64,000 nt of DNA from Solirubrobacterales bacterium (lineage in GTDB: Bacteria > Actinomycetota > Thermoleophilia > Solirubrobacterales > JACPNS01): the NCBI GenBank assembly GCA_049276635.1, contig JBASWU010000026.1, positions 2,282 through 66,281 of the forward strand, given 5' to 3'. Below the pieces are notes generated by a model. It was not told the origin of the DNA and ran no database searches. It worked only from the letters and a program-made list of their open reading frames with translations. This document shows positions 9,439 to 37,253 of the stretch, piece after piece (within the stretch, counting starts at the first letter, position 1; each line of letters opens with the position of its first letter). The translations under genes and the position numbers were made by a program.

Positions 9439-11721
9439 GTGCAGGCTTTCGCCCGTCGCGCTGGTAAATCATTCGTGATGCCCTCACTCAGAGCCGGCTC
9501 GCCGGATGTCGTCCGCAAACCGCGGCGCGCGGACCCACTGCTCGTGCTGATCTTTCTCGGCTGCGCTATCGGTGGCGCGCTGCTGCTTTCGCGCGCGCGG
9601 CAGTGGCTGATGATGACCGACGAGCTGTTGTACGTGGAGATCGCGCGCGGCATCGCCGGTAGCGGTCTGCCTTGGCCGACGGCGCGCGGTGAGCCGGTTG
9701 CCGTTTACCAGCTGCTCTACCCATTGGTGATCAGCCCGATCGTCGGACTGGTCGACATGCCGGGTGCCTACGGGGTGATCACGGCGTTCAACGCCGTGCT
9801 GATGGCCTCGGCGGTGTTTCCGGCCTATCTGCTGACGAACTTCGTCACCGCCAACCGGACCGCCGCGCGCTGGGTGGCCGCCTGCACCGGTGTCGCGCCG
9901 TGGCTGGCGATGGGCAGCAAGATCCTCACCGACGCGCTCGCTTACCCGGTGTTCATCTGGGCGATCTACGCGATCGTGCTGGCAGTGGCATCGCCGGGCC
10001 GCAGACGCGACGCCTGGGCGGTCGCGGCGGTCGTCGCGGCATTCCTGACGCGTAGTCACTTCATCGTCTTGTTGCCGGTGTTCGTCGGCGCGATCCTGCT
10101 GCGCTGTTGGATCGCGGCGATTACGGCGCCGGCGCCAAATCACGCTCGGCGGCTGAAGGCCCTCCCGCCGGCCACAAGGGTCGAGCTGCGGCGGCGCTGG
10201 CCGGTCATCGCGTTGTTCGTCGTCGTCTCGATGCTGATCGTCGTGGCGCCGCGATGGATCCTCGGGATCTACGGCACTACCGCCGACGGCACGCAGGGCG
10301 GCGTGCTGACGCCGAACCTGCTGCGTGCCTCGCTTGCGCACCTCGGGATCCTGGCGGTCGGGATCGGTCCGCTGGCAATCGCGTTGGCGTTGCCGTGGCT
10401 GGGCGCCGGGCTGGGCAGGACCGGCGACGAACGCCAGCACGCCGGAGCCGTGGTCATGGTGGTCGCGATCGTCGCGATGCTGCTGACGGCGGCGTCGTTC
10501 GACCAGCGCTTCACCTTCGCCGGGGAGATATTCGAGCGTTACGTCTTTTACATCGTTCCGCTGCTGCTGTGCGCAACCGCCGCCGGTTTGGCGCGGCCGG
10601 TCAAACACTGGGCAGCGTGGGCTCTTCCCGTGCTTGCCGGCGTACTCGTGATTGCCTCGGACGAACGCTTCGGGCTGGATATCCCGACGACGATCCGCTT
10701 CTCGATGTCGTTCAAGCCGGCCTCGATCTTCATGATCGAGCTGCAGAAGATCGTCGACGGTGTCGGATTACCGAACATCACGATCGCCCTGGCGATCCTC
10801 GCCGTGATCGGCGCGGTGGTCGCCTGGTGGCTGATCGCCGGCCAGCACCTCACCGCCGCGCTCAACGCGATCATGGGAGTGACGCTCGCCTTCACGCTCG
10901 CCTGCACGCTGTATGTGGTGCCGAAGGCGATCGACGCGCAGAACAGCGCCGGATACTTGGAGTTCGTCGCGCGTGACGCAAAGCGGGACTGGCTCGATCG
11001 TGCCGCCGGGACCGCAAGTGTCGCGCTGGTCGAAGGCTCGATCAACGAGCAGCGCAGCGAGCCGATCATCCCCAGCTACAACCAGCCGACCTCATGGTGG
11101 GATCTCGAGCTTTGGAACGATTCGATCGGCACCTACTACACACCGCGCGCCGCGACACTCGACGGCACGCTGCCGACGATGGAGCCGTATTACAAGCTTG
11201 GGCTCGACTTCGAATCCGGTGTGCTCGACACAGCCGGCGGCCGCGACGACAGCTGGCTCGTGATGTCGGCCAGCGACCCGCGTTTCGCGCCGTTCTCATT
11301 TCGACCGCCGGTTCACGGCGGACCGCTGGCGGCGTACGAGACCGGCCCGGATCCACGCGCGAGCTGGATGTCCCGCGGCCTCAGCGCGCACGGGCTGCTC
11401 GCCCGCGACGCCGAGGCGACAATCCGGGTGTTCAGCACGCCGCAACCGTCGCGCGCGGCGACGGGCCTGCTGGCGCTCAGGGTCGAGGCGTCGCCGCTGG
11501 TCAAAAATCTTCCGAACCCATTCACCAAGCGCGCGCGCGAGCGTTCTGTCGGGCCGGTGCGTGAGATCGTCACCAGGCTCTGCATCCCCGCTCGCGGGCA
11601 CACCGACGTCCGCTTCTCGGGCTCCGAGCTGGCTGACCGCGCGGGTGTCAACCTGCAAAAGGCCACACCGCGTGTGATCTCGTTGCGAGTCGACCGGTCG
11701 GCCGGCAACTGCACCAGATGA
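9439..11721 (+). CDS. Large GT-C-like membrane glycosyltransferase, paralogue A (MTDEL-Y family)
   Basis: 760 aa. The N-terminal roughly 450 aa are polytopic, with first-loop motif MMTDELLYVEIARGIAGSG (compare ArnT DExRYAE). It shares LYPLVISP, FPAYLL, TDALAYP and LTRSHF blocks with 22726..25083 and 27326..29548. The C-terminal roughly 300 aa are soluble and carry WWDLELWN. The start is uncertain (ATG 9439 or 9478). Confidence 0.6.
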   Translation: MQAFARRAGKSFVMPSLRAGSPDVVRKPRRADPLLVLIFLGCAIGGALLLSRARQWLMMTDELLYVEIARGIAGSGLPWPTARGEPVAVYQLLYPLVISPIVGLVDMPGAYGVITAFNAVLMASAVFPAYLLTNFVTANRTAARWVAACTGVAPWLAMGSKILTDALAYPVFIWAIYAIVLAVASPGRRRDAWAVAAVVAAFLTRSHFIVLLPVFVGAILLRCWIAAITAPAPNHARRLKALPPATRVELRRRWPVIALFVVVSMLIVVAPRWILGIYGTTADGTQGGVLTPNLLRASLAHLGILAVGIGPLAIALALPWLGAGLGRTGDERQHAGAVVMVVAIVAMLLTAASFDQRFTFAGEIFERYVFYIVPLLLCATAAGLARPVKHWAAWALPVLAGVLVIASDERFGLDIPTTIRFSMSFKPASIFMIELQKIVDGVGLPNITIALAILAVIGAVVAWWLIAGQHLTAALNAIMGVTLAFTLACTLYVVPKAIDAQNSAGYLEFVARDAKRDWLDRAAGTASVALVEGSINEQRSEPIIPSYNQPTSWWDLELWNDSIGTYYTPRAATLDGTLPTMEPYYKLGLDFESGVLDTAGGRDDSWLVMSASDPRFAPFSFRPPVHGGPLAAYETGPDPRASWMSRGLSAHGLLARDAEATIRVFSTPQPSRAATGLLALRVEASPLVKNLPNPFTKRARERSVGPVREIVTRLCIPARGHTDVRFSGSELADRAGVNLQKATPRVISLRVDRSAGNCTR

Positions 11722-13250
11722 CCTCGACCCCCGATCACACGGCCACATCGCCCGAGCTTCGGGACCAGACCGCGTCGGTCGGCCGCGGCGTCGCTTCACT
11801 GTCGCTCGGGCAGGCCGTCTTGATGCTGATGGGCGGCGCGCTGGCGCTGTTGATGACCCAGTTCTTCGGCAAAGACGACCGAACCGACGCGTTTTTCGCC
11901 GCGTACGGGTTCTACGGAGTGGCCGTCGCCTTCGCCCAGTCGCTGCGGCTGACGGCACTACCGAGGCTGATCGGACTCGACGGCGAGTCGCAGGCCTCAC
12001 GGCTGCTCTCGGCGACGATCGTGATCGGAGGCCTGGCGGCTATTCCGATGATCGCGCTCGCCGGACCGCTGGGTGAGTTGATCGTCGACGGTGACCCGAC
12101 CGGGCGCGCCGCGACCACGCTACGCGAGCTATGGCCGACGCTCGCCCTGCAACTGCTCGCCGGAATGTTCATCGCGATCCTCGTCGTCCGTCACGTCTAC
12201 GTCGTCGTCGGCGCGCTGTTCGCGATCGCGAGCGCGATCAGCATCCTCGGATTCGTTCTGCTCGAGCCCGAACTCGGGCTCTCGGCCGTGACGGTCGGAT
12301 TGGCGATGTCGGCGTTGCTGCTGGCCGTCGGACTCGGGGCTGCCCTGCTTCGGTCAGGCTGGCGGTTCGACTGGACCACGCTGCCGCACCCACGGCGGAT
12401 CATCGCCGACGGCCTCTGGCTGACGGTCGCCTCAGCCAGTGCGATCGTGCTTAACGCCGGTTACCTGATCTGCGTCGCCGTCGCCTCCCGCGAGGGAACC
12501 GGGGTGGCGACCGACTACGCCTACGCGTTCTTCATAATTATTTTCCTGCTGGCGACGACCGCGATGCCGGCCGCGATGGTGCGAGCGCCGCGGCTGCTCA
12601 ACCGCAAGGGCGACGCCGGGTTGACCCCCGAAGACGTGATCGCCGACCTGCGCCAGACGCTCGTGATGCTGATTCCGGCGATCGGCGTGATCGCGGTCGC
12701 CGGCGTCAGCGGCATCGACATGCTGGTCGGATCGTTCTTCTCGCGCGAGGATTCCGAGCTGATCGTCGAGCTCGTGCTGGCGCTGGGACCTTGGCTGTTC
12801 GCCTCGGCGGCCGGCGTGATGGTCGTGCTGGAAATGCTCAATCGCGGTCTGGCGCGGCGGCTTTCGGCGATTGCTCTGGTGCATGTGCTGGCGCTGCTCG
12901 CCTGCTCTGTCGTCGGCGTGACGCTGCTGGGCGCCATCGGCGTGGCGATCGGGCAATCGGTCGCGATGGTCGTCGCGACGCTGATCCAGCTGCGGATCAC
13001 GTTCGCCGATCGCTTCGCCGGCGTCGTCGCGTCGCTGCTGCGCGAGGCGGCGATCGCGTCGGCCGTCTTCGCCGTCGCCTTCGGCGCGGCGAGTGTGCTT
13101 GTGCTCGCCCTGTCGGGCGGATTAGCGGCCGCCGGCGGCGCGTCCGCGGCCGGGTTGGCGGTCTTCGCGCTGCTCGCCCGGATCGCCTACGGCCGTGAGA
13201 TACACGCGCTGTTGGCCCTGGCCGCGAGCTTTCGCGGCGGTGCGCGATAG
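11718..13250 (+). CDS. MurJ/MviN-like MOP-superfamily lipid-linked glycan flippase, paralogue 1
   Basis: 510 aa polytopic protein. The N-terminal signature FFGKDDRTDAFFAAYGFYGVAVAFAQSLRLTALPRL resembles the MurJ start. ATGA overlap with the preceding gene. Confidence 0.65.
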   Translation: MTSTPDHTATSPELRDQTASVGRGVASLSLGQAVLMLMGGALALLMTQFFGKDDRTDAFFAAYGFYGVAVAFAQSLRLTALPRLIGLDGESQASRLLSATIVIGGLAAIPMIALAGPLGELIVDGDPTGRAATTLRELWPTLALQLLAGMFIAILVVRHVYVVVGALFAIASAISILGFVLLEPELGLSAVTVGLAMSALLLAVGLGAALLRSGWRFDWTTLPHPRRIIADGLWLTVASASAIVLNAGYLICVAVASREGTGVATDYAYAFFIIIFLLATTAMPAAMVRAPRLLNRKGDAGLTPEDVIADLRQTLVMLIPAIGVIAVAGVSGIDMLVGSFFSREDSELIVELVLALGPWLFASAAGVMVVLEMLNRGLARRLSAIALVHVLALLACSVVGVTLLGAIGVAIGQSVAMVVATLIQLRITFADRFAGVVASLLREAAIASAVFAVAFGAASVLVLALSGGLAAAGGASAAGLAVFALLARIAYGREIHALLALAASFRGGAR

Positions 13251-14613
13251 CCACGCCGGCGCGGCCGCGCCGGGCGCCGAACAAGGCGCGGTCGCCGGGC
13301 CGAGCCGGGCTAGACTGAAGCGCGCCTTGGCCAACCAGACCACATTGAACGATCCGTTCGCCGCGAAGCGGGACCAGCTACGCGCTGAAATCCACAGCCT
13401 GGTGGCCCGGCACTTCGAGTTGCTGCCCGATCCGCCGGCCGACGAGTGCCCGCTGTCAATGCCGCTCTACGGAGCCCAGGAGGTCGGCGGCGCGATCGAT
13501 TCGCTGCTTGAGCAGCGCGTCACGATGGGCGAGAAGGTGCGTGCCTTCGAGCGGCAGTTCGCCGAGTTCATGGGCTCGAAGTTCGCGGTGATGGTCAACA
13601 GCGGCTCCTCGGCCAACCTGCTCGCGCTCTCGGTGCTCTGCGAGCGAGCGGTCGAGAACGGCCTGCGCCCCGGCGACGAGGTGATCGTTCCGGCGGTCAC
13701 TTGGTCCACGACGATCGCGCCGATCCTGCAGCTCGGATGCATCCCGGTGCTCGTCGACATCGACGAGGAGACGCTGAACATGCGCCCCGAGTCGGTCGAG
13801 GCTGCACTGACCGAGCGCACGCGAGCGATCATGCCGGTCCACCTGCTCGGCAACCCGGTCGACATGGCGCCGCTGATGGAGATCGCCGACCGCCACGACA
13901 TGTGGGTGATCGAGGACACCTGTGAGTCGCTCGGCAGCGAGATCGCCGGAAAAAAGGTCGGATCCTTCGGCCACTTTGGCACATTCAGCTTTTACTTCTC
14001 TCACCACATCACCACGATCGAGGGCGGGATGGTCGTAACCGACGATCAGCAGCTCGTCGACCTCGCGCGCTCGTTGCGCGCCCACGGGTGGTCGCGCGAC
14101 ATGTCCACCCGGGCCGAGCTGGAGGCGCAGAACCCGCACATCGATCCATACTTCCTGTTCGTCAACGTCGGCTACAACTTACGGCCGACCGAGCTACAGG
14201 CGGCCTTCGGCCAGGTCCAGCTTGACCGGCTCGACGAGTTCAATGAGTCGCGCCGCCATAACGCCCGCGTCCTAGCCGAAGCGCTGGCCGGTTACAGCGA
14301 CCGCATGCGCCTGGTCTCCGAGCAGGAAGGCGGCCGCAGCACCTGGTTCGGCTTCTCGGTGATCACCGAGGACGCCGCGACCCGCGCCGCGCTGCGCGAC
14401 CACCTCGAGGCACGCAATATCGCCACGCGCCCGATCGTCGCGGGCAACCTCGCGGTGCAGCCGGCCTTCCGTGACAACCCTCACCGCGTCGTCGGGGATC
14501 TCGCGACCGCGACGTCGATCGGTGAGCGCGGGCTGTTCATCGGCAACCACCCAAACCTTACGGCCGACCACCTGCGGCACATCGTCACGGCCTTCGACGA
14601 CTTCTTCGGTTAA
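13195..14613 (+). CDS. DegT/DnrJ/EryC1-family PLP/PMP enzyme of the sugar 3-dehydratase type (ColD/E1-like, His in place of the Schiff-base Lys)
   Basis: Blocks: VMVNSGSSANLLAL, DEVIVPAVTWSTT, WVIEDTCESLGS. The active-site block is SFYFSHHITTIEGG, where aminotransferases have SFxxxKxxxxxEGG; the His codon is at 14002-14004. Other blocks are RAHGWSRD, TWFGFSV, RPIVAGNL and GLFIGNH. There is no Cys cluster for an E1-type 2Fe-2S centre. The start is uncertain: ATG 13195 overlaps the upstream gene by 56 nt, and in-frame TTG 13345 is an alternative. Confidence 0.7.
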   Translation: MRYTRCWPWPRAFAAVRDSHAGAAAPGAEQGAVAGPSRARLKRALANQTTLNDPFAAKRDQLRAEIHSLVARHFELLPDPPADECPLSMPLYGAQEVGGAIDSLLEQRVTMGEKVRAFERQFAEFMGSKFAVMVNSGSSANLLALSVLCERAVENGLRPGDEVIVPAVTWSTTIAPILQLGCIPVLVDIDEETLNMRPESVEAALTERTRAIMPVHLLGNPVDMAPLMEIADRHDMWVIEDTCESLGSEIAGKKVGSFGHFGTFSFYFSHHITTIEGGMVVTDDQQLVDLARSLRAHGWSRDMSTRAELEAQNPHIDPYFLFVNVGYNLRPTELQAAFGQVQLDRLDEFNESRRHNARVLAEALAGYSDRMRLVSEQEGGRSTWFGFSVITEDAATRAALRDHLEARNIATRPIVAGNLAVQPAFRDNPHRVVGDLATATSIGERGLFIGNHPNLTADHLRHIVTAFDDFFG

Positions 14614-14654
14614 GTGCCTATCCCGGCAGGGACTGAGCCGAAGCGACTCCGCGT

Positions 14655-15920
14655 ATGAACAGCGGACGTCCCGCCCGCACCGGCCGGACCGGACCGGTGA
14701 TCTGGTGCCACAGTCATTTCCTGCTGCCGACCGGCGGCACGAAGTACGTCTACGAGGTGGTGCGCAGGATCAAGCGCGACCGGCCGATCGAGGTCGTCGT
14801 CGAACGCGCGTCCGAGTACTGGCGCGAGCGCTACACGCAGGCCGGCGTGCCACTGCACGAGATCTCCGGCCTGACCTCGACGAGCAAGCGCTACTGGCTG
14901 GAGTTTCCCCGGCAGCTGCGCCACGCGGGGTCGGAGGTCGCGCGGCTCGCCGACGAACTCGACGCCGGCCACCTCGCGTCGAGCTTCTTTCCGTTCAACC
15001 GGGTCTGCGGCGAAGTCGCGTCCAAGCGCGGGCTGCGCCACACCCACCTCTGCTTCGAGCCGTTTCCGTTCTTTCACGACCGTGAGGTCCAAGGGATGTA
15101 CCCACCGGCGCAGCGCACACTGATGCGCGCGCTCGGCGCGCTCTACGGCCGGATCGACCGCGCCGGCGTGCGCTCAGCCGACGAACTGCTGACGCTCAAC
15201 GAGATCACACGTGACGCGATCGAGCGGACCTACGGCCGCACCGACGCCGTCCCGGTCTACACCGGTATCGACCACGATCACTTCCGCCCCTTCTCTGACG
15301 CGGAGCTTACCGACCTGCGCGAACGGCACGGCAGCGGGGTGTTCGCCGTCCACTCGACCGACTTCTCGCCGATCAAGCGCACAGACCTTGCGCTCGAGGC
15401 ATTCGCGGTCGCGGCGCGATCGGTCGACGCGAAACTGTTGATCACCAGCACGATCGACGACCCGAGTTCGCTCGGCGCGCTGATCAAGCGCGCCGGCGAG
15501 CTCGGTGTCGCCGACCGCATCGAGTACCTCGGGTTCGTCGACTACGACGACCTGCCGCGCTACTACGCGCTGGCGAGCGTTCTGGTGCAAACGGGCACCT
15601 CGGTCAACTCCGGCGCGACATCGATGTCGCTGCCGGTGAAGGAGGCGCTGGCATGCTCGACGGCCGTGATTCGCTCGCGCGCGACCGGCGAGGACGTCGA
15701 GGACGGCGTCAGCGGCTACCTGGTCGATCCGGCCGACAGCGAAGCTACGGGCGCCCGAATGGCCGAACTGCTGCGCGAGCCGGAACTCGCAACATCATTC
15801 GGGGCGGCCGGGCACGCGCGCATGCTTGAACTCTACAGCTGGGAGCATGTCGTGGCTGCCTTCCTGCGCGCGTTTGACGGTGTCGGCCCGGGCGACTCCG
15901 TATCGTCGGGACCGAGGTGA
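14655..15920 (+). CDS. GT-B fold glycosyltransferase (GT4 / group 1)
   Basis: 421 aa. C-terminal EX7E-type block PVKEALACSTAVIRSRATGEDVEDGVSGYLVDP and N-terminal GGTKYVYEV. Confidence 0.8.
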   Translation: MNSGRPARTGRTGPVIWCHSHFLLPTGGTKYVYEVVRRIKRDRPIEVVVERASEYWRERYTQAGVPLHEISGLTSTSKRYWLEFPRQLRHAGSEVARLADELDAGHLASSFFPFNRVCGEVASKRGLRHTHLCFEPFPFFHDREVQGMYPPAQRTLMRALGALYGRIDRAGVRSADELLTLNEITRDAIERTYGRTDAVPVYTGIDHDHFRPFSDAELTDLRERHGSGVFAVHSTDFSPIKRTDLALEAFAVAARSVDAKLLITSTIDDPSSLGALIKRAGELGVADRIEYLGFVDYDDLPRYYALASVLVQTGTSVNSGATSMSLPVKEALACSTAVIRSRATGEDVEDGVSGYLVDPADSEATGARMAELLREPELATSFGAAGHARMLELYSWEHVVAAFLRAFDGVGPGDSVSSGPR

Positions 15921-16864
15921 ACGATCAAACGGCGAAACGCGCGCTGATCACCGGTGTCTCGGGGTTCGCCGGCCGACATCTGGCCGAGCTGCTGGTGCAA
16001 AACGGCTGGGCGGTCAGCGGCACGACGAACACGCGTAGCTGCGATGTCGCGGGCGTCACCTCGCACGCGCTGCAGATCGACGACGTCGCCGCGCTCGGCG
16101 CCTTGATCGGGTCGGTCGAACCGGACGTCGTTTTTCACCTCGCGGCGATCGTCGACACCGTGCGGACGCCGAGCATCATGGAGCTGCACCGCGTGAACAC
16201 GATGGGCACCGTCGCCGTGACCGAGGCGATCGCCGAGAGCGGCTCGCGCGCGCGGCTGGTCTTCGCGAGTTCCTCGTTCGCCTACGGGCGCGTCGGCGAG
16301 AACTCGGCGGCGATCCCCGAGTCGACCGAGCTCCGGCCGGTCACCGCGTACGGTGCGAGCAAGGCCGCCGCCGAGCAGATCGTCTGGCAGCACGCGCGGC
16401 TGCGCGATGCCGACGTCGTCGTGACGCGCGCCTTTCAACACACGGGACCGGGACACACCGGCGCCTACGCGCTGGCCGACTGGGGCCGGCAGCTCGCCGA
16501 AATCGAGCAGCGCGGCGAACACGGCGCGATCGCGACCGGCAACCTCGCCGTCGAACGTGACTATCTGGACGTGCGCGATGTCGCGGCCGCCTACCTCGCC
16601 GTCGCCGAGCGCGGCCACCGTGGCGGGACCTACAACGTCTGCAGCGGGGAGCCGCTGGCAATGGAGGTTCTACTGCGCGGCCTGATCGCAAGCTTCGGGA
16701 TCGAGGTCGAAATCGAGACCGACGCCCGACGCCTGCGTAAGGTCGATCAGCCGGTCTTCGCCGGCGATCCGCGCAGGCTGTCGAACGACACCGGATGGCG
16801 GCGGCGAGTCACGCTCGAAGATACGCTCGACGCGCTTGCGTCGTACTGGCGCGCCCGGACTTGA
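15917..16864 (+). CDS. Extended SDR, GDP-4-keto-6-deoxy-D-mannose reductase (Rmd)-like
   Basis: ALITGVSGFAGRHLAELL, YGASKAAAE, RAFQHTGPGH, GNLAVERDYLDVRDVAAAYL and YNVCSG follow the Rmd pattern as I recall it from Pseudomonas Rmd. GTGA overlap with the GT4 gene. Confidence 0.65.
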   Translation: MNDQTAKRALITGVSGFAGRHLAELLVQNGWAVSGTTNTRSCDVAGVTSHALQIDDVAALGALIGSVEPDVVFHLAAIVDTVRTPSIMELHRVNTMGTVAVTEAIAESGSRARLVFASSSFAYGRVGENSAAIPESTELRPVTAYGASKAAAEQIVWQHARLRDADVVVTRAFQHTGPGHTGAYALADWGRQLAEIEQRGEHGAIATGNLAVERDYLDVRDVAAAYLAVAERGHRGGTYNVCSGEPLAMEVLLRGLIASFGIEVEIETDARRLRKVDQPVFAGDPRRLSNDTGWRRRVTLEDTLDALASYWRART

Positions 16865-17100
16865 ATTGCACGTTCTACGACGAACGTCCATCTTGCTTGC
16901 ACCCCGGGCCGGGCCGGTCTACGTTGATCGTGAAGTTGATTCGGGCAACGATCTCTAGGCGGCGTGCCGCCAGGGAGTTAACCCCGAACCAACCTCGCTA
17001 GACCCTGATCGGGTCAATCGCGAACTTCCGGCACCCGTTCTCTGAGCTGCTCGGGAGCTGGATCGCAATCCTCGACTGCGGAGGCCGAGGATTGCGGGAA

Positions 17101-17129: not shown

Positions 17130-17143
17130 GGCGGCATGGCGCG

Positions 17144-19211: not shown

Positions 19212-19228
19212 GCCGCCCTCCGGTGGTG

Positions 19229-20884: not shown

Positions 20885-20910
20885 CGATGAGATGGCACGC
20901 GAATCAGAAC

Positions 20911-21633
20911 CTACGCCTGGGAGGACTTGTTCGCGACGGCGATCATATTGATCATGTAACGGCCGAGAGGACCATGACCGAAGCGGTCGAGCCGGTCGTT
21001 GGCGCCGTACAGCGCCGGGTGAAGAAATGGAAGCGCGTTGAATCCGCGGAAATCCTCGATCGTGAGCCCATCGTCACGGAGCCAGTCCTGCAGCTCTCGC
21101 CAGCGGACCCAGTTCTCGACGCCCTGATAGGGCCGGATCCGGAGGCGGCTCGCCAGCTCGATCGACCAATGCCACACGTGGTTGGGAGTCGTCAGGATCA
21201 GCGTGCCGCCCGGGCGCAGCACGCGAGCGAGCTCGCCGACCGCCCGCCGCGGATCGAGGGTGTGCTCGATCACCTCGGTGTTGATCACCACATCGAACGA
21301 CTGCGCCGCAAACGGAAGTCGCGTGACATCGCCGACGACTCGCGTGCTTTCGCACTTCTCGGCGACGCGCTCGAGCAGCGCCTCCCCGACGTCCATCGAC
21401 GTAACCTCCGCGCCGCGCGAACACGCGCACTCGCTGAACAAGCCGGTGCCGCATCCGGCGTCGAGCAACGCACGACCGGTGAGGTCCACGCCGCCCAAAG
21501 CCTCATCGAAGACGAGCCGCAGGCGTTTCGACACCTCGTAGCGGTTCATCTTGTCGTCGAACTCCGACGCAAACCGCTCATAGAAGAGGGCGCGGTCGGG
21601 AAGATCGACGCCCCTGTTGTAGCCCGTCGCCAT
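20911..21633 (-). CDS. Class I SAM-dependent methyltransferase
   Basis: Motif I LLDAGCGTGLFS, an acidic residue after beta-2 (EVTSMDVGE), FDVVINTEVIEHT and LRPGGTLILTTPN. Confidence 0.85.
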   Translation of the reverse strand: MATGYNRGVDLPDRALFYERFASEFDDKMNRYEVSKRLRLVFDEALGGVDLTGRALLDAGCGTGLFSECACSRGAEVTSMDVGEALLERVAEKCESTRVVGDVTRLPFAAQSFDVVINTEVIEHTLDPRRAVGELARVLRPGGTLILTTPNHVWHWSIELASRLRIRPYQGVENWVRWRELQDWLRDDGLTIEDFRGFNALPFLHPALYGANDRLDRFGHGPLGRYMINMIAVANKSSQA

Positions 21634-21710
21634 CTAACCCCTGAGTCTATAACGGAAAATGCGGCTCGATTCGGCGTTGCACCCAGCGAAGCATCTGTCG
21701 ATCCCCCGTC

Positions 21711-21716
21711 TATAAT
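21711..21716 (+). promoter_or_regulatory. Candidate -10 hexamer TATAAT for the long plus-strand glycan operon
   Basis: A perfect TATAAT lies 43 nt upstream of ATG 21759 in the divergent intergenic region. GGAGGGG RBS is at 21748-21754. I saw no convincing -35. Confidence 0.3.
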
Positions 21717-21758
21717 CCCGCCGGTCCTGCATGTAACGGCCGACCGCGGAGGGGCACG

Positions 21759-22733
21759 ATGAAAATCAGCGTCGTCGCGCCGCTTCAAAATGAGGAGGCT
21801 GCGCTTCCCCAGTTAATCGCGCGTTTGCGGCGGACGCTGGAGGCACTCCCGCACGAATGGGAGGTCATCCTGGTCGACGACGGCTCGTCCGATGGCACAT
21901 GGCGTCTTCTCACCAACGAGGCCACAGCCGACGCGCGATTTCGCGGATTACGCCTGACACGGAACTTCGGGCATCAGCGCGCACTCTCGGCCGGACTCGA
22001 TGTCGCCGACGGCGACGCGATCATTTCGATGGACGGCGATCTCCAGCATCCACCTGAGGTACTTCCGACGTTGATCGCCAAGTGCCTTGAGGGACACGAC
22101 GTGGTCTACGCGATTCGTTCCGAAGACGACCGCGAGGGTTGGTTCAAGATCCACACCGCTCGCCTGTTCTACTGGCTGTTCAACCTGCTGACGCGACTGG
22201 ACCTGCCGCCTGGGGCGGGTGACTTCCGCGTCACGTCGAGACGGGCGCTCGACGTGCTGCTGGCGATGCCGGAACGGTCGAGGTTCCTGCGCGGTATGAC
22301 GCGCTGGACCGGCTTTGAGCAGTCGACCATCTACTACGACCGGGCGGACCGGCAGGGCGGCGCCTCGAAATACACGCTCGGCCGCATGGTGCGCTTCGCG
22401 GCCGATGCGATAGTCGCATTCTCCGCCTGGCCGCTGCGCATCGCGAGCATGTTCGGAATCTTCTTCTCGCTGATGGGCGGACTCTACCTAATATACGTAC
22501 TGTACGTACGACTGTTCACGGACGACTCGCTCGCGGGGTGGACGTCGGTGGTCGTGGTGACGCTGATCCTCGGCGGCGTGCAACTCGCCTGCCTCGGAAT
22601 AATCGGCCAGTACCTTGGGCGCATCTACGACGAGGTCAAGGGGCGCCCGGTGTTTCTGGTGCTCGAGGACACCGCCCTCACCGCGCGGCGGCCGGCCGGC
22701 GTGCCGGAGACCGATCCCACACGGTGTGCCTGA
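21759..22733 (+). CDS. Polyprenyl-phosphate glycosyltransferase (GT2, GtrB/ArnC/DPM1-like)
   Basis: ISVVAPLQNEEAALPQL, VILVDDGSSDGT, TRNFGHQRALSAGL and SMDGDLQHPPE, plus two C-terminal TM helices. This is the GtrB/ArnC architecture. Confidence 0.8.
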   Translation: MKISVVAPLQNEEAALPQLIARLRRTLEALPHEWEVILVDDGSSDGTWRLLTNEATADARFRGLRLTRNFGHQRALSAGLDVADGDAIISMDGDLQHPPEVLPTLIAKCLEGHDVVYAIRSEDDREGWFKIHTARLFYWLFNLLTRLDLPPGAGDFRVTSRRALDVLLAMPERSRFLRGMTRWTGFEQSTIYYDRADRQGGASKYTLGRMVRFAADAIVAFSAWPLRIASMFGIFFSLMGGLYLIYVLYVRLFTDDSLAGWTSVVVVTLILGGVQLACLGIIGQYLGRIYDEVKGRPVFLVLEDTALTARRPAGVPETDPTRCA

Positions 22734-25083
22734 GCGGGTGGCCGTCGCTAGCCCCGAACGACCACGGCGCCGGCCTGCAACGCCGGAGCCCGACGGGTCC
22801 AACCCGGTCGAACGTCTGCTGTCGCGTAAGTACGTAACGCCGGTCTGCCTGGCCGCGATCTTCATTCTCGCCTGGCTCTACTACGCGACTCAGGCCTTGC
22901 AGTCGCGCAATTTCGTGATCATGACCGACGAGTTGCAGTACGTGAAGCTCGCGATCAACACCCTGAATTCGCCGGTCCCGGAACTGCACGGCGTCTCCAT
23001 CGGCTCTTACAACCAGCTCTACCCGTGGCTGATCGCGCCACTCGCCGCGATCTTCGATTCGATGCCGGACCTCTACCTGGCGATTCATGTGCTCGACCCA
23101 TTCTTGATGACGAGCGTGGTGATCCCTGTATTTCTGCTTGCGCGGTCGGCGGGCGCGTCACGCCTCGGCGCGCTGGTGGCGGCGGGGATATCGGTCGCGG
23201 GTCCATGGCTGGTCTTCTCGACGTTGATGATGACCGAGAACGTCGCGTATCCGGCATTCGTGCTGGTCATTTTCGCGTTTCATCGCACGCTCGCCAAACC
23301 GAGCCCGGGCAACGACCTGCTCGCGCTCGCGGCGATTCTGTTCGGGATCTTCGCGCGGACACAGTTCGTCGTACTCGCGGCCGTGCTGCCGGTCGCGGTG
23401 TTGCTGTATGGCGGTCTGGGCGCCGCCCGCGGCGGCGACCGGGAGTCGCAGCTCACCCTGTTCCGTGACGGAGTCGCCGACGCGATCCGCCACCACCGCA
23501 CGCTCTTTCGAGCGCTGGGCGCCGGCGCCGTCGTGTTGCTGATCGTCGTGCTCGTCGCCAGCCCGTTCGGTATTTACGATGCGGCGTTCCGGCGACCGCT
23601 GCTGCCGAAGGGCGCCGTGTTCCTGGCGGGTCGCCATCTCGGAACGCTGGCCGTGGGATTCGGCTTGATCCCGATGGTCGCGGGCGTCGCGTTCGCGCTA
23701 TCGACGCTGCGATCCCGGGAAGCCGGCGCGCGCCCGCGCGCGTTCGCCACACTGGCGGTCGTCGCCGTGGGGGCCGTGATGTACCAGGCCTCGGCGTTCA
23801 ACATCAACTTCTCGGCCGGATGGATGAACGACCGCTACGTCTTTTACATCCTGCCTCTATTCGCGATCGGGCTCGTGCTCGCGGTCGAGGCCTGCAGGCC
23901 GTCGTTCGGCGAGGTCGCAGTCGCCGGGCTGCTCGTCGCAGCGGTCGTCTACGACGCGCATTTCGCCGGATATCCCGGCCGCGCCTGGGTGGGGGCGCCG
24001 TCCGCCGTGATCGACCCCGTCCTAAACGGGCGCCTGGCGCAGGTCGCCGGCACGAGCGCAGGGCCGATCAACGTCGTGATGACCGTCGCCACGCTGATCG
24101 CCGCCGCCTACGTTTACTGGTGCCGGACGGTCCGCAGCCGGTTGCTCGCACTGACCCTGCTCACCGCTCCCGTCTTCTTGTGGTGCCTGCTGACAACGCG
24201 GTACCTGTTCGACAAGCAGGAGCCGTTCAGTCGCCCGACGCTGACCGGAATCAAGGCGTCGCTGCATACGGCCAACGTTGGCTACAACAGCAACACAACC
24301 GTTCCCGCGGGACAGGCCCCGCCGCTGGACTGGGTGGACCGCAAGGTCCCTGAAGGGCCCGTCGGACTGCTGCCGTCGGAGGACATAGCGATCGAGGGCT
24401 GGTGGCAGGACGAGTTCTGGAACCGCCGCGTGGATCGTGTTCTGCGGTTTATCAATCCATCGCAGTCCCCGGCCTACCGCCAATCGGTATTTCAGAAACA
24501 GCTCGACACGCTGCACCATGACCGATTCCGGATCGATCTCGCCACCGGACGATTTGAAGGAATCCCCCGCGATCGCATGCCCGCACGAGTGGTCGTTTCG
24601 GCGAATGACGTGCGGTTTGGCTTTGCCAACGCGCGAACCCTGACCACACATAGCGATATTCGGGCCGGCTTGCCCACATCAAAGCGGCTGCTCGCTGTCG
24701 ACACACCGTACCGCGCCCGGTGGGTGCTGACGAACACGCTCGATGACGGACACCTGCTCGTCGGGCGATCGCAGTTGCGAATCTTCCCGTCGCCGAGCCT
24801 CGCCGGCCGGATCGATGTCTCGCTTCGGCTCGAACGAGTCGAGACCTCACTCAAGCGTACGTCCTGGTACGCCCGGTTTCCTTCGTCAGCCGCCCGCGGC
24901 GAGATCACTCGTCGCGCGGCCCGCTCCACCGTCAGGGGAACTGTCTGCATGCCGTCGGCGGGACGGATCGGGGTCGTAAAGCTGCGCGCGGTTCCACGAC
25001 CGAAGCCGCCGGACGCTCTTTATCTCAGCGGAGTCGCGGTTCGCAGCGTCTCGGTGCGAGCTACCAACCGCCCGTGCCAGTAA
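22726..25083 (+). CDS. Large GT-C-like membrane glycosyltransferase, paralogue B (MTDEL-Y family)
   Basis: First-loop motif VIMTDELQYVKLA, then LYPWLIAP, IPVFLLA, TENVAYP, ARTQF, and a C-terminal domain with WWQDEFWN. Start set to GTG 22726, which overlaps the upstream stop (GTGCCTGA); GTG 22738 is also possible. The ATG at 22615 lies inside the previous gene. Confidence 0.6.
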   Translation: MPERVAVASPERPRRRPATPEPDGSNPVERLLSRKYVTPVCLAAIFILAWLYYATQALQSRNFVIMTDELQYVKLAINTLNSPVPELHGVSIGSYNQLYPWLIAPLAAIFDSMPDLYLAIHVLDPFLMTSVVIPVFLLARSAGASRLGALVAAGISVAGPWLVFSTLMMTENVAYPAFVLVIFAFHRTLAKPSPGNDLLALAAILFGIFARTQFVVLAAVLPVAVLLYGGLGAARGGDRESQLTLFRDGVADAIRHHRTLFRALGAGAVVLLIVVLVASPFGIYDAAFRRPLLPKGAVFLAGRHLGTLAVGFGLIPMVAGVAFALSTLRSREAGARPRAFATLAVVAVGAVMYQASAFNINFSAGWMNDRYVFYILPLFAIGLVLAVEACRPSFGEVAVAGLLVAAVVYDAHFAGYPGRAWVGAPSAVIDPVLNGRLAQVAGTSAGPINVVMTVATLIAAAYVYWCRTVRSRLLALTLLTAPVFLWCLLTTRYLFDKQEPFSRPTLTGIKASLHTANVGYNSNTTVPAGQAPPLDWVDRKVPEGPVGLLPSEDIAIEGWWQDEFWNRRVDRVLRFINPSQSPAYRQSVFQKQLDTLHHDRFRIDLATGRFEGIPRDRMPARVVVSANDVRFGFANARTLTTHSDIRAGLPTSKRLLAVDTPYRARWVLTNTLDDGHLLVGRSQLRIFPSPSLAGRIDVSLRLERVETSLKRTSWYARFPSSAARGEITRRAARSTVRGTVCMPSAGRIGVVKLRAVPRPKPPDALYLSGVAVRSVSVRATNRPCQ

Positions 25084-25092
25084 CACAATCAC

Positions 25093-26421
25093 GTGAATCG
25101 AGCGCCCCGACAGGGGGTTTTGGGAGCGTCTTCCGCTGCTAGCTTGCAGCCTATGTCACTCGACGACAGCACGGCGATCGCTCCGGTCAAGCCCACCGAC
25201 GGCAACGCCGTCTGGGAACTGTCCAAGAGTCCGGTTGCGATTTCAGTCCGCGATGTCAGCAAGCGCTTCATGATTCCGCAGGAGCGAGTTCACACGCTCA
25301 AGCAACGTGTGATCCAGCCGCGCAGACGCAGGTTCGATCCACTTGATGCGCTGAAAGACATCGACTTCGACGTCCATGTCGGCGAGTTCTTTGGCATTGT
25401 CGGGCGCAACGGCAGCGGCAAGAGCACGCTGCTCAAGTGCATCGCTGGCATCTACAGGCCGCACCAGGGCGACATCGCCGTTCGCGGCAATCTCTCGACC
25501 TTCATCGAGCTCGGCGTCGGCTTTAACCCCGAACTGTCGGCGCGCGACAACGTCGTGCTCAACGCGACGCTGCTCGGACTCTCAACCGCCGAGGCAAACG
25601 AGAGGTTCGACGAGATCATCGCCTTCGCCGAACTCGAGGACTTTGTGGATTTGAAACTGAAGAACTTCTCGTCCGGTATGCATGTGCGCCTCGCCTTCAG
25701 CGTCGCCGTGCACGTCGAATCCGACGTCCTGCTGATCGACGAGGTGCTTGCCGTCGGCGACGCGGCCTTTCAGCAGAAATGCTTCGACACCTTTGAGCGC
25801 TTCCTCGAGGAGGGACGGACGGTCGTCTTCGTCACTCACGACATGGCGTTGGTCGAGCGGTTCTGCACCCGCGCGCTGATGCTCGATCGCGGTGGCATCG
25901 CCTGCTTCGGTCACCCGTCGAAGGTCGCCCGCGAGTACATGCGTGTCAACTTCGACAAGATCGTCCATGACGACGAGGATCGACCCAGCACACGCATCGG
26001 CGACGGAGCCGCCGAGATCGTCGACTGCTGGTTTGAGGACCGGCACGGAGCGCGCACAACCCGCCTGCGCCAGGGCGAACCGGCGGGGTTCAAGGCCACA
26101 ATCCGCTTCCACGAGCCGATGGCACAACCGATCCTCGGCGTGATCTTCAAAGACCACAAGCGCAACCCGATCTTTATGACCAACACCGTGCTCGACGGCA
26201 TCAAAACCGGCAACTTCGCCGGCGGCGACGAGATCACCTACGAGGTGACGTTCGACAATTTCTTCGAGGACGGACACTACCTGGCCTCGCCGATGGTCGC
26301 ACACGCAGACGGTGTCAACGTGGCCGACCTGCGCGACGACATGATCGCGCTTCTGGTCACGGGACGGCGGAACGCCGGCGGCCGCGCAAACTTTCCCCAC
26401 GAAAGCAAGGTCTTGAGGTGA
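25093..26421 (+). CDS. Polysaccharide/teichoic-acid ABC exporter ATP-binding protein (Wzt/TagH type) with extended C-terminal domain
   Basis: Walker A GRNGSGKST, signature FSSGMHVRL and Walker B LLIDEVL. About 150 aa follow the NBD (IGDGAAEIVDCWFEDRHG...GHYLASPMV), in the position of Wzt C-terminal glycan-binding domains. Start is 25093 or ATG 25153. Confidence 0.85.
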   Translation: MNRAPRQGVLGASSAASLQPMSLDDSTAIAPVKPTDGNAVWELSKSPVAISVRDVSKRFMIPQERVHTLKQRVIQPRRRRFDPLDALKDIDFDVHVGEFFGIVGRNGSGKSTLLKCIAGIYRPHQGDIAVRGNLSTFIELGVGFNPELSARDNVVLNATLLGLSTAEANERFDEIIAFAELEDFVDLKLKNFSSGMHVRLAFSVAVHVESDVLLIDEVLAVGDAAFQQKCFDTFERFLEEGRTVVFVTHDMALVERFCTRALMLDRGGIACFGHPSKVAREYMRVNFDKIVHDDEDRPSTRIGDGAAEIVDCWFEDRHGARTTRLRQGEPAGFKATIRFHEPMAQPILGVIFKDHKRNPIFMTNTVLDGIKTGNFAGGDEITYEVTFDNFFEDGHYLASPMVAHADGVNVADLRDDMIALLVTGRRNAGGRANFPHESKVLR

Positions 26422-27323
26422 CTCGGCTCAATTCGCTGACGATCTCCGACGACGACATGAACCGGCGCGTCGCCAGCGACGAAGCACGCTCCGACGATGC
26501 CCTCGTGGTCGTCACCTCGACGGCTTTTCCGGGCCCGGGCCAGTGGCGCCACTTCTGGGATCTGACGATAACGCTCGCGCGCAACGAGCTGAAACAGCGA
26601 TACTTCGGGTCGGCACTGGGCTACCTATGGTCGCTCGCCAGGCCGATGATGCTGTTCAGCGTTCTTTACTTCGTGTTCACGCACATCATCATGCGCGCCG
26701 ACATCCCGCACTACGGGGTCTACTTACTACTGTCGCTGGTGCTCTGGACGTATTTTGCCGAGACGACGGCGCTCGGAGTCGAAAGTCTCGTACACCGCGA
26801 GAGCATCATGCGTAAGATCAACTTTCCGCGCATTGCCATACCGGTTTCGCTCGCGCTGACGACCGGCTTTCAGCTTCTGCTCAACCTGCTTGTGGTCGTC
26901 GGATTCATGCTCGTAACCGGTGTTATGCCGGCTTGGACGTGGCTGCCGGCGGTGCTGCTGATCCTGCTGTTCCTTGCGTTTACGATCGGCGTCGCGATGC
27001 TGTTGTCGACCCTCTATGTCAAGTTTCGCGACGTCGAGCCGGTTTGGCAGGTCACGACCCAAATGCTGTTCTGGGGGTCGCCGGTGATCTACATCGCGCT
27101 GTTTCCGCCCGAGTCGATTCGCGGGATCATGGCCGCGAGCCCGATCTCGGCGACATTCACGCAGCTACGGCGATGGGTGATCGACGGCTCGGCTCCCAGT
27201 GCCGCCGATGTTCTCGGTGGGCCGGTCTATCTGCTGATCCCGTTGGCTATTGCGGTGTTCACCTTCGTGCTCGGTGTCGCCGTGTTCGCGCGGGAAGCCC
27301 CACGCGTAGCCGAAGACCTCTGA
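26418..27323 (+). CDS. ABC-2 type polysaccharide exporter permease (Wzm/TagG type)
   Basis: NELKQRYFGSALGYLWSLARPMMLF start, 6 predicted TM helices, and GTGA overlap with the ATPase gene. Confidence 0.85.
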   Translation: MTRLNSLTISDDDMNRRVASDEARSDDALVVVTSTAFPGPGQWRHFWDLTITLARNELKQRYFGSALGYLWSLARPMMLFSVLYFVFTHIIMRADIPHYGVYLLLSLVLWTYFAETTALGVESLVHRESIMRKINFPRIAIPVSLALTTGFQLLLNLLVVVGFMLVTGVMPAWTWLPAVLLILLFLAFTIGVAMLLSTLYVKFRDVEPVWQVTTQMLFWGSPVIYIALFPPESIRGIMAASPISATFTQLRRWVIDGSAPSAADVLGGPVYLLIPLAIAVFTFVLGVAVFAREAPRVAEDL

Positions 27324-27325
27324 CC

Positions 27326-29548
27326 GTGCGGGAACGCATATCGACGATCTGGCGTCTCCGCACGACTAAGCGGTTCGAGGCCGCTGCCGTCGGGTCGATC
27401 GTGCTCGCTTCGTCGATCTACGGGATCTGGCGTGTCTCAGCGGTCCAAGAGTGGGGCGTAATGACCGACGAGCTCTTCTACCTGAAGCTCGCACAGGGGA
27501 TCGCCGACGGCTGGCCGGCGCTACGCGGCGACCGCGTAGCGCCGCACGGGATCCTTTACCCCCTACTGATCGCGCCGCTGGTCGGAAGCTTCGGCGCGGC
27601 GTCATCGTTCACCGCAATCCACTACTTGAACGTTTTCCTCCTAGCCAGCGCGGCGGTGCCGGCCTATCTGTTGGCGCGCGCGGTGACGAAGCGGCCACCG
27701 CTCGGTTTGATCGTCGCTGCCGGCACCGTCTGCGTCCCGTATCTCGCCGCCGCCTCGAAGTTCACGACCGAGCCTCTCGCATACCCGATGTTCACCTGGG
27801 CGGTACTGGCGATCGTAACGGCCGTCGCGCATCCCAGTCGCAGGGCTGAATTGCTGGCGCTATCGGCGATTACGCTCGCCTACCTGACGCGCACGCAGTT
27901 TATTTATCTGTTTGTGCTGCTGCCGGTGATCGGCGTTGCGCACGGCGCGCTCTACCGGCCGCGGTCGATCCGCGCAGGCGTCCTCGACGGGATCGGCCGG
28001 CATCGGATATCGGTGAGCGCGGCGGGACTGGTCGCGGCTGTGCTGGTGGTCGCACCGACGCTCCTGCTAGGCAATTACGCGGTTACGGCGTCGGGCGGGA
28101 CCGGCGGTCTGCTGCCAGACGGGGTCATTCATTCGTCGGTCGTGCATGCCGGAACGCTGGCGCTTCAGCTGGGAGGCCTGACCGTACCGCTCGCGCTGGC
28201 TTTCGCGGTCGCGACACTTCTGCAGCCCGGCGTTCGCGAGCGGCACTGTTTCGCGATCACCCTTCTTGCCGTCGGAGCAACCTCGATATACGTCGCCGCG
28301 GCATTCGACACCCGCTTCGTCGGCGCGCTCAGCGGCATCGAGCCGTCCGAGATCGTCCGCGAGCGATATCTCATTTATCTTGTGCCGATCGCGCTGACCG
28401 GGGCGGCGGCCTTTTTCGCCGACGCCGCGCGGTGGCGATGGCGGGCGGCGAGCGGCGCAGCCGTGGCCGGCGCACTGACGGCGCTTACGATCGAATCGGC
28501 GAGCGTACGAACTGACGCGCTGATCCCGTCGTTCGACTCGCCGGGACGGATCTTCAACATCGTGATCGTTGGGCGAGTTGCTCAACTTCGCGATATCAGC
28601 GGAATCGACCGGTTGCAACCCGGGGCGCTTGCGATGGCTCTGACAATCGCCGGACTCGGCGTAATCGCGGTCGCAATCTGGCGCGGTCACGACCGGCTTG
28701 CCACATATGCGGTGCTCGGTCTCGTTTTTTCGTACCTCGTGGCGGAGACTTGGTACGTCGTCCCACGCGTGTACTACGAGCAAAACACGCTCAGTTTTTA
28801 TCTCGGTCCGCGTACCGCTGAACAGCGCACTTGGATCGACCGCTCGGTCGGCGACCGGTCCGTCGGGATGCTCGCCAGCACCGTGACGGCTCGCGGAACC
28901 ACGCCGTATCTGTCGCCGTACCTCAACGGCGCCCTCTGGTGGGACGCCGAATTCTGGAACAGCCGTGTCGACACCTACTACATACAGGCCGGCTTGGATC
29001 TGACCTTGCCACCATACCGCCGCGCCACGGTCGACCGTGCCGCCGGGTCGATTGCCTCGGCGGGACAACGCACCGACTACCTCGTAGTCACACAGAAGAA
29101 CCCATCGTTTCAGATCGCCGGCGAACCCGAGCGGCGCCAAGGGGATCTCGCGTTATATCGCGTCGATTGGCCGGTCCGGTTGACCTGGGCCAGCGCCGAC
29201 GTCTTCCCCGACGGATGGACCAATTCCACCAGCGACGCCGACCCGCGGCTCGACTTGTTTGGCCCGCGCGGCACAAGATTAGATGTCTCGGTGCTGCTGT
29301 CCAACGGCCCAACCGTCGACGACAAGCCGCGCGTCGTCGAGATCTCACTACCGGGCGCCGCGACAAGACGAGTAAGAGTCGATGCGGCGACCGCGGTGCG
29401 CGTCGTTACGTGCAAGCCGTCTGACCGCCCGCTCCCGATCGGACTGCGCTCGCCGGGCACGGTCGACGGCGCTCGCCGCATCGGAGTGCGGATTGCGTCG
29501 GTCACGGTGACCGCACGCCGCTCCTGCGAGCCGAAGGCCGGGCGATGA
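27326..29548 (+). CDS. Large GT-C-like membrane glycosyltransferase, paralogue C (MTDEL-Y family)
   Basis: First-loop motif GVMTDELFYLKLAQGIADG, then LYPLLIAP, VPAYLLA, TEPLAYP, LTRTQF, and a C-terminal domain with WWDAEFWN. Start set to GTG 27326, 2 nt after the permease stop. The listed ORF start 26933 lies inside the permease gene. Confidence 0.6.
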   Translation: MRERISTIWRLRTTKRFEAAAVGSIVLASSIYGIWRVSAVQEWGVMTDELFYLKLAQGIADGWPALRGDRVAPHGILYPLLIAPLVGSFGAASSFTAIHYLNVFLLASAAVPAYLLARAVTKRPPLGLIVAAGTVCVPYLAAASKFTTEPLAYPMFTWAVLAIVTAVAHPSRRAELLALSAITLAYLTRTQFIYLFVLLPVIGVAHGALYRPRSIRAGVLDGIGRHRISVSAAGLVAAVLVVAPTLLLGNYAVTASGGTGGLLPDGVIHSSVVHAGTLALQLGGLTVPLALAFAVATLLQPGVRERHCFAITLLAVGATSIYVAAAFDTRFVGALSGIEPSEIVRERYLIYLVPIALTGAAAFFADAARWRWRAASGAAVAGALTALTIESASVRTDALIPSFDSPGRIFNIVIVGRVAQLRDISGIDRLQPGALAMALTIAGLGVIAVAIWRGHDRLATYAVLGLVFSYLVAETWYVVPRVYYEQNTLSFYLGPRTAEQRTWIDRSVGDRSVGMLASTVTARGTTPYLSPYLNGALWWDAEFWNSRVDTYYIQAGLDLTLPPYRRATVDRAAGSIASAGQRTDYLVVTQKNPSFQIAGEPERRQGDLALYRVDWPVRLTWASADVFPDGWTNSTSDADPRLDLFGPRGTRLDVSVLLSNGPTVDDKPRVVEISLPGAATRRVRVDAATAVRVVTCKPSDRPLPIGLRSPGTVDGARRIGVRIASVTVTARRSCEPKAGR

Positions 29549-37236: not shown

Positions 37237-37253
37237 CTGCCCGTAGCGAACGA

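Follow-up and report, generated by a model that had tools for sequence, protein, structure and literature searches.

A 64-kb stretch of DNA from the metagenome-assembled genome (MAG) of an uncultured soil actinobacterium of the Solirubrobacterales, referred to below as the window, carries three paralogous open reading frames (ORFs) on the forward strand, which are termed A (9439–11721), B (22726–25083) and C (27326–29548). It was found that their products are almost certainly glycosyltransferases of the GT-C fold, as judged from a predicted structure. By analogy with characterised systems, we read them as polyprenyl-phosphate-sugar-dependent extracytoplasmic glycosyltransferases that would decorate a wall glycan, a reading to which we give a probability of about 0.6. 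This kind of system is already well known and no new mechanism is revealed; the novelty lies in the sequence family, which lacks a Pfam or NCBIfam model and a PDB sequence relative, in its C-terminal domain and in the lineage that carries it.

All three proteins are labelled "hypothetical protein" by NCBI (WAO61_01890, WAO61_01940 and WAO61_01955 for A, B and C, respectively). The starts of B (785 residues) and C (740 residues) are identical to those of the annotated proteins, whereas A starts at GTG 9439 in our ORF list (760 residues) and at ATG 9478 in the NCBI annotation (747 residues).

Fold, conserved residues and family

BLASTP comparison gave 33% identity between A and C over 709 residues (E = 3.9e-78), 28% between B and C over 812 residues (E = 5.5e-44) and 26% between A and B over 613 residues (E = 3.0e-26). 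These matches spanned nearly the full length of the proteins and were far above chance, and 105 columns were invariant in the three-way alignment. The colinearity of the three forward-strand ORFs, which had been noticed in a preliminary description of this DNA, was thereby reproduced, and all the motifs quoted there were located by regular expression at equivalent positions in A, B and C. The same description spoke of a triplication, which did not hold in the sense of a recent local event. Because their identity does not exceed 34% and their nearest relatives differ among other genomes, the three are, from sequence comparison, ancient paralogs. In related MAGs (loci L001–L006), positional orthologues of A stood downstream of a class II ribonucleotide reductase gene, C-like copies lay 2–7 kb from Wzm/Wzt genes in L008 and L058, and B was nearest to the Gaiellales-type members that form the majority.

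The AlphaFold2 model of A, built from a 48-sequence alignment, had a predicted local distance difference test score (pLDDT) of 88 and a predicted template-modelling score (pTM) of 0.90. It was nearly wholly helical up to about residue 503 and continued into a beta-rich domain. The N-terminal domain of about 500 residues contains many hydrophobic segments, and the number of transmembrane (TM) helices was estimated at 13–14. When the model was compared with the PDB by Foldseek, the 22 best matches were all GT-C enzymes (probability 0.98–1.0). The top match was ArnT (5f15; E = 1.5e-7, probability 1.0, TM-score 0.52 normalised to ArnT), followed by EmbA/EmbB, AglB, STT3, ALG9, AftB, PglB, DPY19, Pmt4 and AftA, with Pmt1-Pmt2 also among them; below these 22 came unrelated transporters with low probability. 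The structure prediction thus settled the fold as GT-C, as had been proposed from the sequence before any model was made. We take the three proteins to belong to the GT-C_A structural class (ArnT, PMT, oligosaccharyltransferase (OST), Emb/Aft), a label that follows the published classification.

Scans of A, B and C against Pfam and NCBIfam at E ≤ 1 returned nothing meaningful; among the models without a match at this threshold were PMT (PF02366), PMT_4TMC, MIR and PMT_2 (PF13231), and STT3 was likewise absent from the Pfam matches. Weak PMT_2 matches were observed in 8 of the 48 homologues (best E = 1.6e-6). The 48-sequence profile, compared with all PDB sequences, found only spurious de novo Ig-like designs and one OST match at E = 3. 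The earlier remark that no characterised family could be assigned was therefore borne out by the Pfam, NCBIfam and PDB-sequence searches.

The sequence MTDEL was found at residues 59–63 of A, 66–70 of B and 46–50 of C, encoded on the forward strand at 9613–9627, 22921–22935 and 27461–27475, respectively. In the model of A, D61 and E62 follow directly after the first TM helix (residues 33–50) and stand at the N-terminus of the first-loop helix. This is the position of the DE hallmark in loop 1; according to mutagenesis, the activity of Pmt1 of yeast, of the Pmt enzymes of M. tuberculosis and S. coelicolor, and of ArnT depends on it (PMC8698208). Conservation was assessed in the 48 homologues and in 147 representatives of separate 50%-identity clusters. 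Both acidic residues were present in 48/48 homologues, so that the placement of the Asp-Glu pair at the PMT/ArnT position, as first described, was upheld by topology and by alignment alike. Among the representatives, D61 was conserved in 145/147 and E62 in 143/147, and comparable values were obtained for R205 (146/147), Y278 (145/147), R367 (147/147), W518 (144/147), D520 (142/147) and N560 (144/147), with Y368 and G594 likewise near-invariant. A sequence bridge to ArnT through the PMT_2-positive homologue P0080 was tried and rejected, as it gave no PDB match and no residue mapping of D61/E62. None of the outcomes that the preliminary description had named as refuting, namely a predicted structure lacking a GT-C core, DE residues that vary among homologues or identity with a characterised enzyme of known substrate, was observed.

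Other motifs common to A, B and C are LYPxxI(S/A)P, (F/I/V)P(A/V)(Y/F)LL, T(D/E)xxAYP, (T/A)R(S/T)(H/Q)F, W(L/V/I)DR and WW(D/Q)xE(L/F)WN. The last two read WLDR (10990–11001) and WWDLELWN (11095–11118) in A, and the latter reads WWQDEFWN (24400–24423) in B and WWDAEFWN (28937–28960) in C, all on the forward strand. Family-wide, the tryptophans of WWDxE were variable (W553 in 24/48 homologues, W554 in 31/48), and the conserved portion was E-x-W-N only.

Of 1.84 billion cluster representatives searched with a family profile, 7,911 were matched at E ≤ 1e-3, of which 2,321 were still matched at E ≤ 1e-30, and the family numbers 2,300 or more clusters at the 50% identity level. The best 150 representatives were nearly all 650–790 residues long, and most were matched across nearly the full profile. 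With one genome per GTDB species, 309 stretches were found to encode a relative. Locus comparisons were made on the best 79 of these, all from MAGs, with an 11-sequence alignment as the query. The best 79 loci were mostly assigned to Solirubrobacterales, Thermoleophilaceae, Gaiellales/Gaiellaceae, Thermoleophilia or, more broadly, Actinomycetes/Actinomycetota, and one to Fimbriimonadaceae. Among the genome matches listed, the family thus appeared from sequence matches to be almost entirely one of Thermoleophilia. A literature search on GT-C enzymes and Thermoleophilia returned no paper. Two kinds of unusual relatives were seen in the set of homologues that includes P0026, P0027, P0044, P0155 and P0117: fusions of a GT4 domain to a PMT_2-positive GT-C protein (1,086–1,112 residues), and very long proteins (1,404 and 1,169 residues) with two or three separate profile matches, possibly tandem copies.

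The C-terminal domain

A soluble C-terminal domain of about 300 residues had been described for each paralog. Its presence was confirmed, while its size in the AlphaFold2 model was about 250 residues (residues ~508–760 of A), and it was beta-rich. Modelled alone, the domain had a pLDDT of 86.5. In a fold search against the PDB, E ≤ 1e-3 was not reached by any match and TM-scores stayed at 0.33 or lower, with generic beta-sandwich resemblances only. Matches to the carbohydrate-binding modules (CBMs) CBM16 and CBM22 had a probability of at most 0.25, and those to STT3/AglB soluble domains of at most 0.13.

Each domain carries paired cysteines near its end (C715/C758 in A, C741/C784 in B and C696/C734 in C). 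Of the 147 representatives, 109 had two domain cysteines, 33 had none and 1 had a single cysteine; among the 48 homologues the corresponding counts were 25, 21 and 1. This all-or-none covariation indicates, as a sequence pattern, that the pair forms a disulfide, which in turn would place the C-terminal domain outside the cytoplasm. The disulfide proposed for these cysteines in the preliminary description was therefore supported. The glycan-binding or ruler function attached to it was not, and CBM and ruler assignments were dropped because no significant fold match was obtained.

The most conserved residues of the domain, W518-x-D520 and E557-x-W559-N560, lie in its first ~55 residues, directly after the last TM helix. 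We infer that the WxD and ExWN motifs help form the acceptor site.

The glycan locus and the proposed pathway

The region of ~9.4–43.6 kb in the window is one large glycan locus, which encodes an ATP-binding cassette (ABC)-exported, probably rhamnose-containing polymer. All three paralogs are joined to genes of this locus. The GTG start of B (22726) overlaps the TGA stop (22731–22733) of a gene for a GtrB/ArnC/PgfS-type polyprenyl-phosphate glycosyltransferase (21759–22733, forward strand), which consists of a GT2 domain and C-terminal TM helices. Over its full length, the enzyme matched Synechocystis GtrB (5EKP; E = 4.8e-75); matches to ArnC (E about 8e-49) and to the NCBIfam models ArnC and PgfS (5e-52 and 5e-74, respectively) were also obtained. 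It contains DxDxQ (DGDLQ), a hallmark of polyprenyl-phosphate GT2 enzymes (PMC10821137). B is followed on the same strand by the genes of a polysaccharide exporter, namely Wzt (25093–26421), an ABC ATPase with a Wzt_C carbohydrate-binding domain, and Wzm (26418–27323), an ABC-2 permease. The GTG start of C (27326) lies 2 nucleotides after the stop of Wzm, and the stop of C overlaps the start of a GT2 gene (29545–30615, forward strand). Both neighbourhoods, B coupled to a GtrB-like enzyme and C directly after the exporter, agree with what had been noted earlier. The tightly packed operon runs in the order GtrB homologue, B, Wzt, Wzm, C, GT2, a 297-residue protein, GT2-WsaF-like and a 577-residue GT-C-like protein.

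A pathway can be proposed from this arrangement. At the cytoplasmic face, the GtrB homologue, possibly with other glycosyltransferases of the locus, would load a sugar onto polyprenyl phosphate. The lipid-linked donor would then be flipped outward, for which two MurJ-like proteins (11718–13250 and 17670–19211) are the candidates. A, B and C would act as inverting transferases that pass on this sugar, or else a short oligosaccharide from its lipid carrier, to a rhamnose-type wall glycopolymer, itself made in the cytoplasm before export through Wzm/Wzt. In this transfer, the Asp-Glu pair may position or activate the acceptor hydroxyl, R205 and R367 may hold the donor lipid phosphate, by analogy with other GT-C enzymes, and the predicted disulfide-stapled C-terminal domain may help form the acceptor site. 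Pathways of this type have established precedents in GacI/J/K/L and the lactococcal Wps/Csd systems (PMC10821137), and a three-component system with a flippase of the MOP/MATE (multidrug and toxic compound extrusion) families and a GT-C enzyme is known for GT136 (PMC11127046). In S. mutans, SccN/SccM and SccP/SccQ place glucose at different rhamnose positions (PMC11754754). Because of this SccM/SccQ precedent, it is plausible that A, B and C act at different positions or with different donors, as in the three linkage specificities on one polymer suggested in the preliminary description, and by that analogy they probably differ in the donor used, in the acceptor position addressed, or in both.

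Similar arrangements were observed in a few other genomes. In locus L013 (7466–12359), from a Thermoleophilaceae MAG, a GtrB-like GT2 gene (252 residues, DGDGQ), a family gene in which the motif reads MSDEL and a MurJ-like gene stand in a row and in one orientation; no cleaner natural arrangement of the three components was found for the family. In L082, a GT2 gene with a GT2_TM_C domain lies 9 nucleotides upstream of a family member, inside an ABC-exporter/WsaF locus.

Several points weigh against this extracytoplasmic role in wall-glycan decoration. In most of the best 79 loci, genes for a GtrB-like enzyme, a flippase and an exporter were all lacking within 10 kb of the family gene, and GtrB-like genes near it were found in only 3 of the 79. 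In the window itself, a single clear GtrB-type synthase stands against three GT-C copies. The C-terminal domain had no significant match to any CBM in the PDB fold search, and its outside location is argued for by cysteine covariation together with analogy to other GT-C enzymes. The equivalence of D61/E62 to the catalytic Asp of ArnT and PMT is one that we infer from the modelled topology and invariance only. After reduced clustering of the locus ORFs, no neighbour family was common to more than 10 of the 79 loci. An apparent neighbour cluster from 61 loci was discarded, as it looked like shadow ORFs overlapping the family gene (an example ORF was checked).

The genes beside A bear on an alternative, in which A, B and C would be en-bloc transferases or polymerases of the WpsJ/WpsH or oligosaccharyltransferase type, attaching a flipped oligosaccharide or polymer to another glycan or polymerising repeat units. 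The gene for the first MurJ/MviN-like flippase candidate (11718–13250, 510 residues) overlaps the end of A, its ATG and the TGA of A sharing the sequence ATGA at 11718–11721. Next on the forward strand come genes for an RfbH-like pyridoxal phosphate (PLP)-dependent sugar enzyme of the DegT/DnrJ/EryC1 family (13195–14613; RfbH model 6e-112), a GT4 glycosyltransferase (14655–15920) and an NAD-dependent epimerase/dehydratase (15917–16864). Together with the MurJ/Wzx-type flippase candidate, they could be a set for a lipid-linked oligosaccharide. The membrane-proximal WWD-like motif may also loosely resemble the WWDYG motif of OSTs. In the lactococcal model, moreover, the pellicle polysaccharide, which is C55-P-linked and flipped by Wzx, is attached by GT-C enzymes to a rhamnan exported by an ABC transporter (PMC10821137), and AglB, STT3 and PglB are among the structural matches of A. 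We nevertheless hold en-bloc transfer to be unlikely. The variable tryptophans of WWDxE leave only E-x-W-N as a family feature, no STT3 match was found by Pfam, the best structural match (ArnT) is a monosaccharide transferase, and the synthase coupled to B is of the GtrB type, which makes monosaccharide-phosphoprenols.

The same coupled synthase has its best NCBIfam match in PgfS, which belongs to the streptococcal Pgf protein-glycosylation system. This would fit protein O-glycosyltransferases of the Pmt/PgfM type, which use a polyprenyl-phosphate donor to glycosylate Ser/Thr residues of membrane or secreted proteins. Pmt enzymes are marked by the DE motif in loop 1 (PMC8698208), and in streptococci a GtrB and a GT-C enzyme are reported to glycosylate Ser/Thr-rich protein regions (PMC12041528). 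Furthermore, most family members stand alone outside glycan loci, such as the isolated copy beside a sigma/anti-sigma pair in L081, which fits a general housekeeping role. However, the 249 bits scored against PgfS fall far short of the equivalog cut-off (500), and A, B and C gave no Pfam match to PMT, PMT_4TMC or MIR at E ≤ 1. All three window copies are translationally coupled to polysaccharide-pathway genes, and members are embedded in glycan loci also in L008, L058, L080 and L082. Protein O-glycosylation was thus considered rather improbable as the function of the three proteins.

That A, B and C are non-enzymatic GT-C-derived scaffolds or transport-associated membrane proteins is hardly credible, although many family members are orphans in their genomes, because near-invariance over 147 clusters less than 50% identical to one another, as seen for the DE dyad, for two arginines and for a number of aromatic or polar residues, is the pattern expected of purifying selection on an active site.

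A wider form of the wall-glycan reading is offered only tentatively, and we consider it possible but doubtful. The family might be a new CAZy-level GT-C family with its own disulfide-stapled acceptor domain (WxD, ExWN), and the main extracytoplasmic glycan-building family of Thermoleophilia, as Emb/Aft are in Mycobacteriales. [quoted passage not shown]

Further features of the locus concern the supply of sugars and the handling of the polymer. A GC-rich, terminator-like hairpin with a T-rich tail (9372–9399, forward strand; 12-bp stem with 10 GC pairs) separates A from the class II ribonucleotide reductase gene, suggesting that A begins a new transcription unit. The module beside A hints at the making of a 3,6-dideoxy or similarly deoxygenated sugar. 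The model closest to the enzyme at 13195–14613 was RfbH, a CDP-6-deoxy-D-xylo-4-hexulose-3-dehydrase (374 bits vs a cut-off of 423). The second MurJ/MviN-like flippase candidate (17670–19211, forward strand, 513 residues) is 40% identical to the first, and both have many TM segments. Neither matched any Pfam or NCBIfam model itself, and a search of PDB sequences with the MurJ-like protein gave no match. They were identified through homologues of 17670–19211, which carry PF03023 and are named MviN/MurJ; the proteins are assigned to the multidrug/oligosaccharidyl-lipid/polysaccharide (MOP) superfamily. Two candidate MOP flippases and an ABC exporter would imply that more than one lipid-linked intermediate crosses the membrane.

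On the reverse strand, a 551-residue membrane protein with VIDDW after its first TM helix and without a detectable family (19229–20884) is transcribed with an S-adenosylmethionine (SAM)-dependent methyltransferase (20911–21633). The methyltransferase, together with the Wzt_C domain, suggests that the polymer bears a terminal methyl cap recognised by Wzt.

Downstream of C and its adjoining GT2 gene, the forward strand encodes a conserved soluble protein of 297 residues without a family (30630–31523), which has a charged C-terminal stretch that by eye resembles a coiled coil, and a GT2 fused to a WsaF-like rhamnosyltransferase-type glycosyltransferase (31534–33657). The 297-residue protein is kept between GT2 and GT2/WsaF-like genes in L004, L005/L080 and L006, and speculatively it could be a chain-length or termination factor. 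At the operon end, a 577-residue polytopic membrane protein (33629–35362, forward strand) without a Pfam or NCBIfam family has GPDEDYHW after its first TM helix. By hhalign it was aligned with the family region of about residues 106–262 of A, assigned to TM3–7 (probability 75%, E = 2.5e-5), and this profile match makes it a probable, though more distant, fourth GT-C-like enzyme. The same comparison of the family profile with the membrane proteins at 19229–20884 and 4493–6040 was not significant. The latter, a 515-residue protein on the reverse strand, had a weak PMT match only (E = 0.0085) and may be another GT-C-like enzyme; the order epimerase, 515-residue gene, class II ribonucleotide reductase and A is kept in L001–L005.

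The remainder of the locus comprises, on the reverse strand, an epimerase (35319–36407), a GT2 (36382–37236) and the GDP-mannose 4,6-dehydratase Gmd (37254–38261), and, on the forward strand, a GT2 (38221–39174), WecG/TagA (39670–40467), RmlA (40543–41631), RmlD (41674–42567) and RmlB (42564–43568). Three forward-strand ORFs (20869–21762, 35265–36311 and 36175–37515) were rejected as genes, as they are shadow frames opposite the reverse-strand methyltransferase, epimerase and GT2. The G+C content of the window is 66%.

Thermoleophilia (Solirubrobacterales, Gaiellales) are common in soil metagenomes and nearly uncultured, and to our knowledge nothing is known of how their envelope glycans are made. 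A family of "hypothetical" proteins is now given a fold, a candidate catalytic dyad and a pathway model, and provides material for a new Pfam or CAZy family. If the proposed pathway holds, the paradigm of synthase, flippase and GT-C enzyme known from Firmicutes and Proteobacteria would also cover a deep lineage of the actinobacteria, and the locus with three paralogs is a concrete entry point for defining donors and linkages.

Comparison with known systems

The closest structural relative, ArnT (GT83; 5F15/5EZM), transfers 4-amino-4-deoxy-L-arabinose (L-Ara4N) from undecaprenyl phosphate to lipid A. It resembles A, B and C in its polytopic TM domain and in the acidic motif of the first outside loop, and it has a partner GT2 synthase of the ArnC/GtrB type, which is here encoded beside B. 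In contrast, the sequence identity is only ~15%, A, B and C have no PMT_2/ArnT Pfam match, and they add a beta-rich domain of ~250 residues with a predicted disulfide. Their locus context also points to a polysaccharide acceptor and not to lipid A.

The PMT/Pmt enzymes (GT39) share the DE dyad directly after the first TM helix, and Pmt4 and Pmt1-Pmt2 were among the structural matches. Eukaryotic PMTs have a MIR domain inside loop 5. A, B and C differ in the absence of PF02366, PMT_4TMC and MIR matches, in the C-terminal position of the large soluble domain and in the polysaccharide locus. From STT3/PglB/AglB (GT66) they differ by the lack of an STT3 match and by the variable WW of WWDxE.

ORF12 of Citrobacter youngae (GT136), EmbC and AftD likewise combine a GT-C core with an extra extracytoplasmic domain, and EmbA/EmbB were among the top structural matches. 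The GT136 system uses a flippase of the MOP/MATE family (PMC11127046), to which the MurJ-like MOP candidates of the window may be comparable. Nevertheless, the C-terminal domain had no significant match to a CBM or to the Emb C-terminal domain, and no phosphoribosyl-type donor synthase was identified in the locus.

The systems of the SccM/SccQ, GacL, CsdB/D/F and GtrC types were compared by system logic; A, B and C form a separate, unannotated sequence family from Thermoleophilia. Classical Gtr systems use a small GtrA-type protein as the flippase, whereas the flippase candidates here are MurJ-like, and most family members have no adjacent synthase or flippase genes. The adjoining of a GtrB-type synthase and a GT-C gene, as in a three-component Gtr-type system, was seen in the window for B only, and also in L013 and L082. 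The likeness would lie in the whole: a GtrB-type synthase, a flippase and an outward-acting GT-C enzyme on an ABC-exported rhamnan, with several GT-C paralogs per locus, which in SccM/SccQ-type systems serve different attachment positions (PMC11754754, PMC10821137, PMC11127046).

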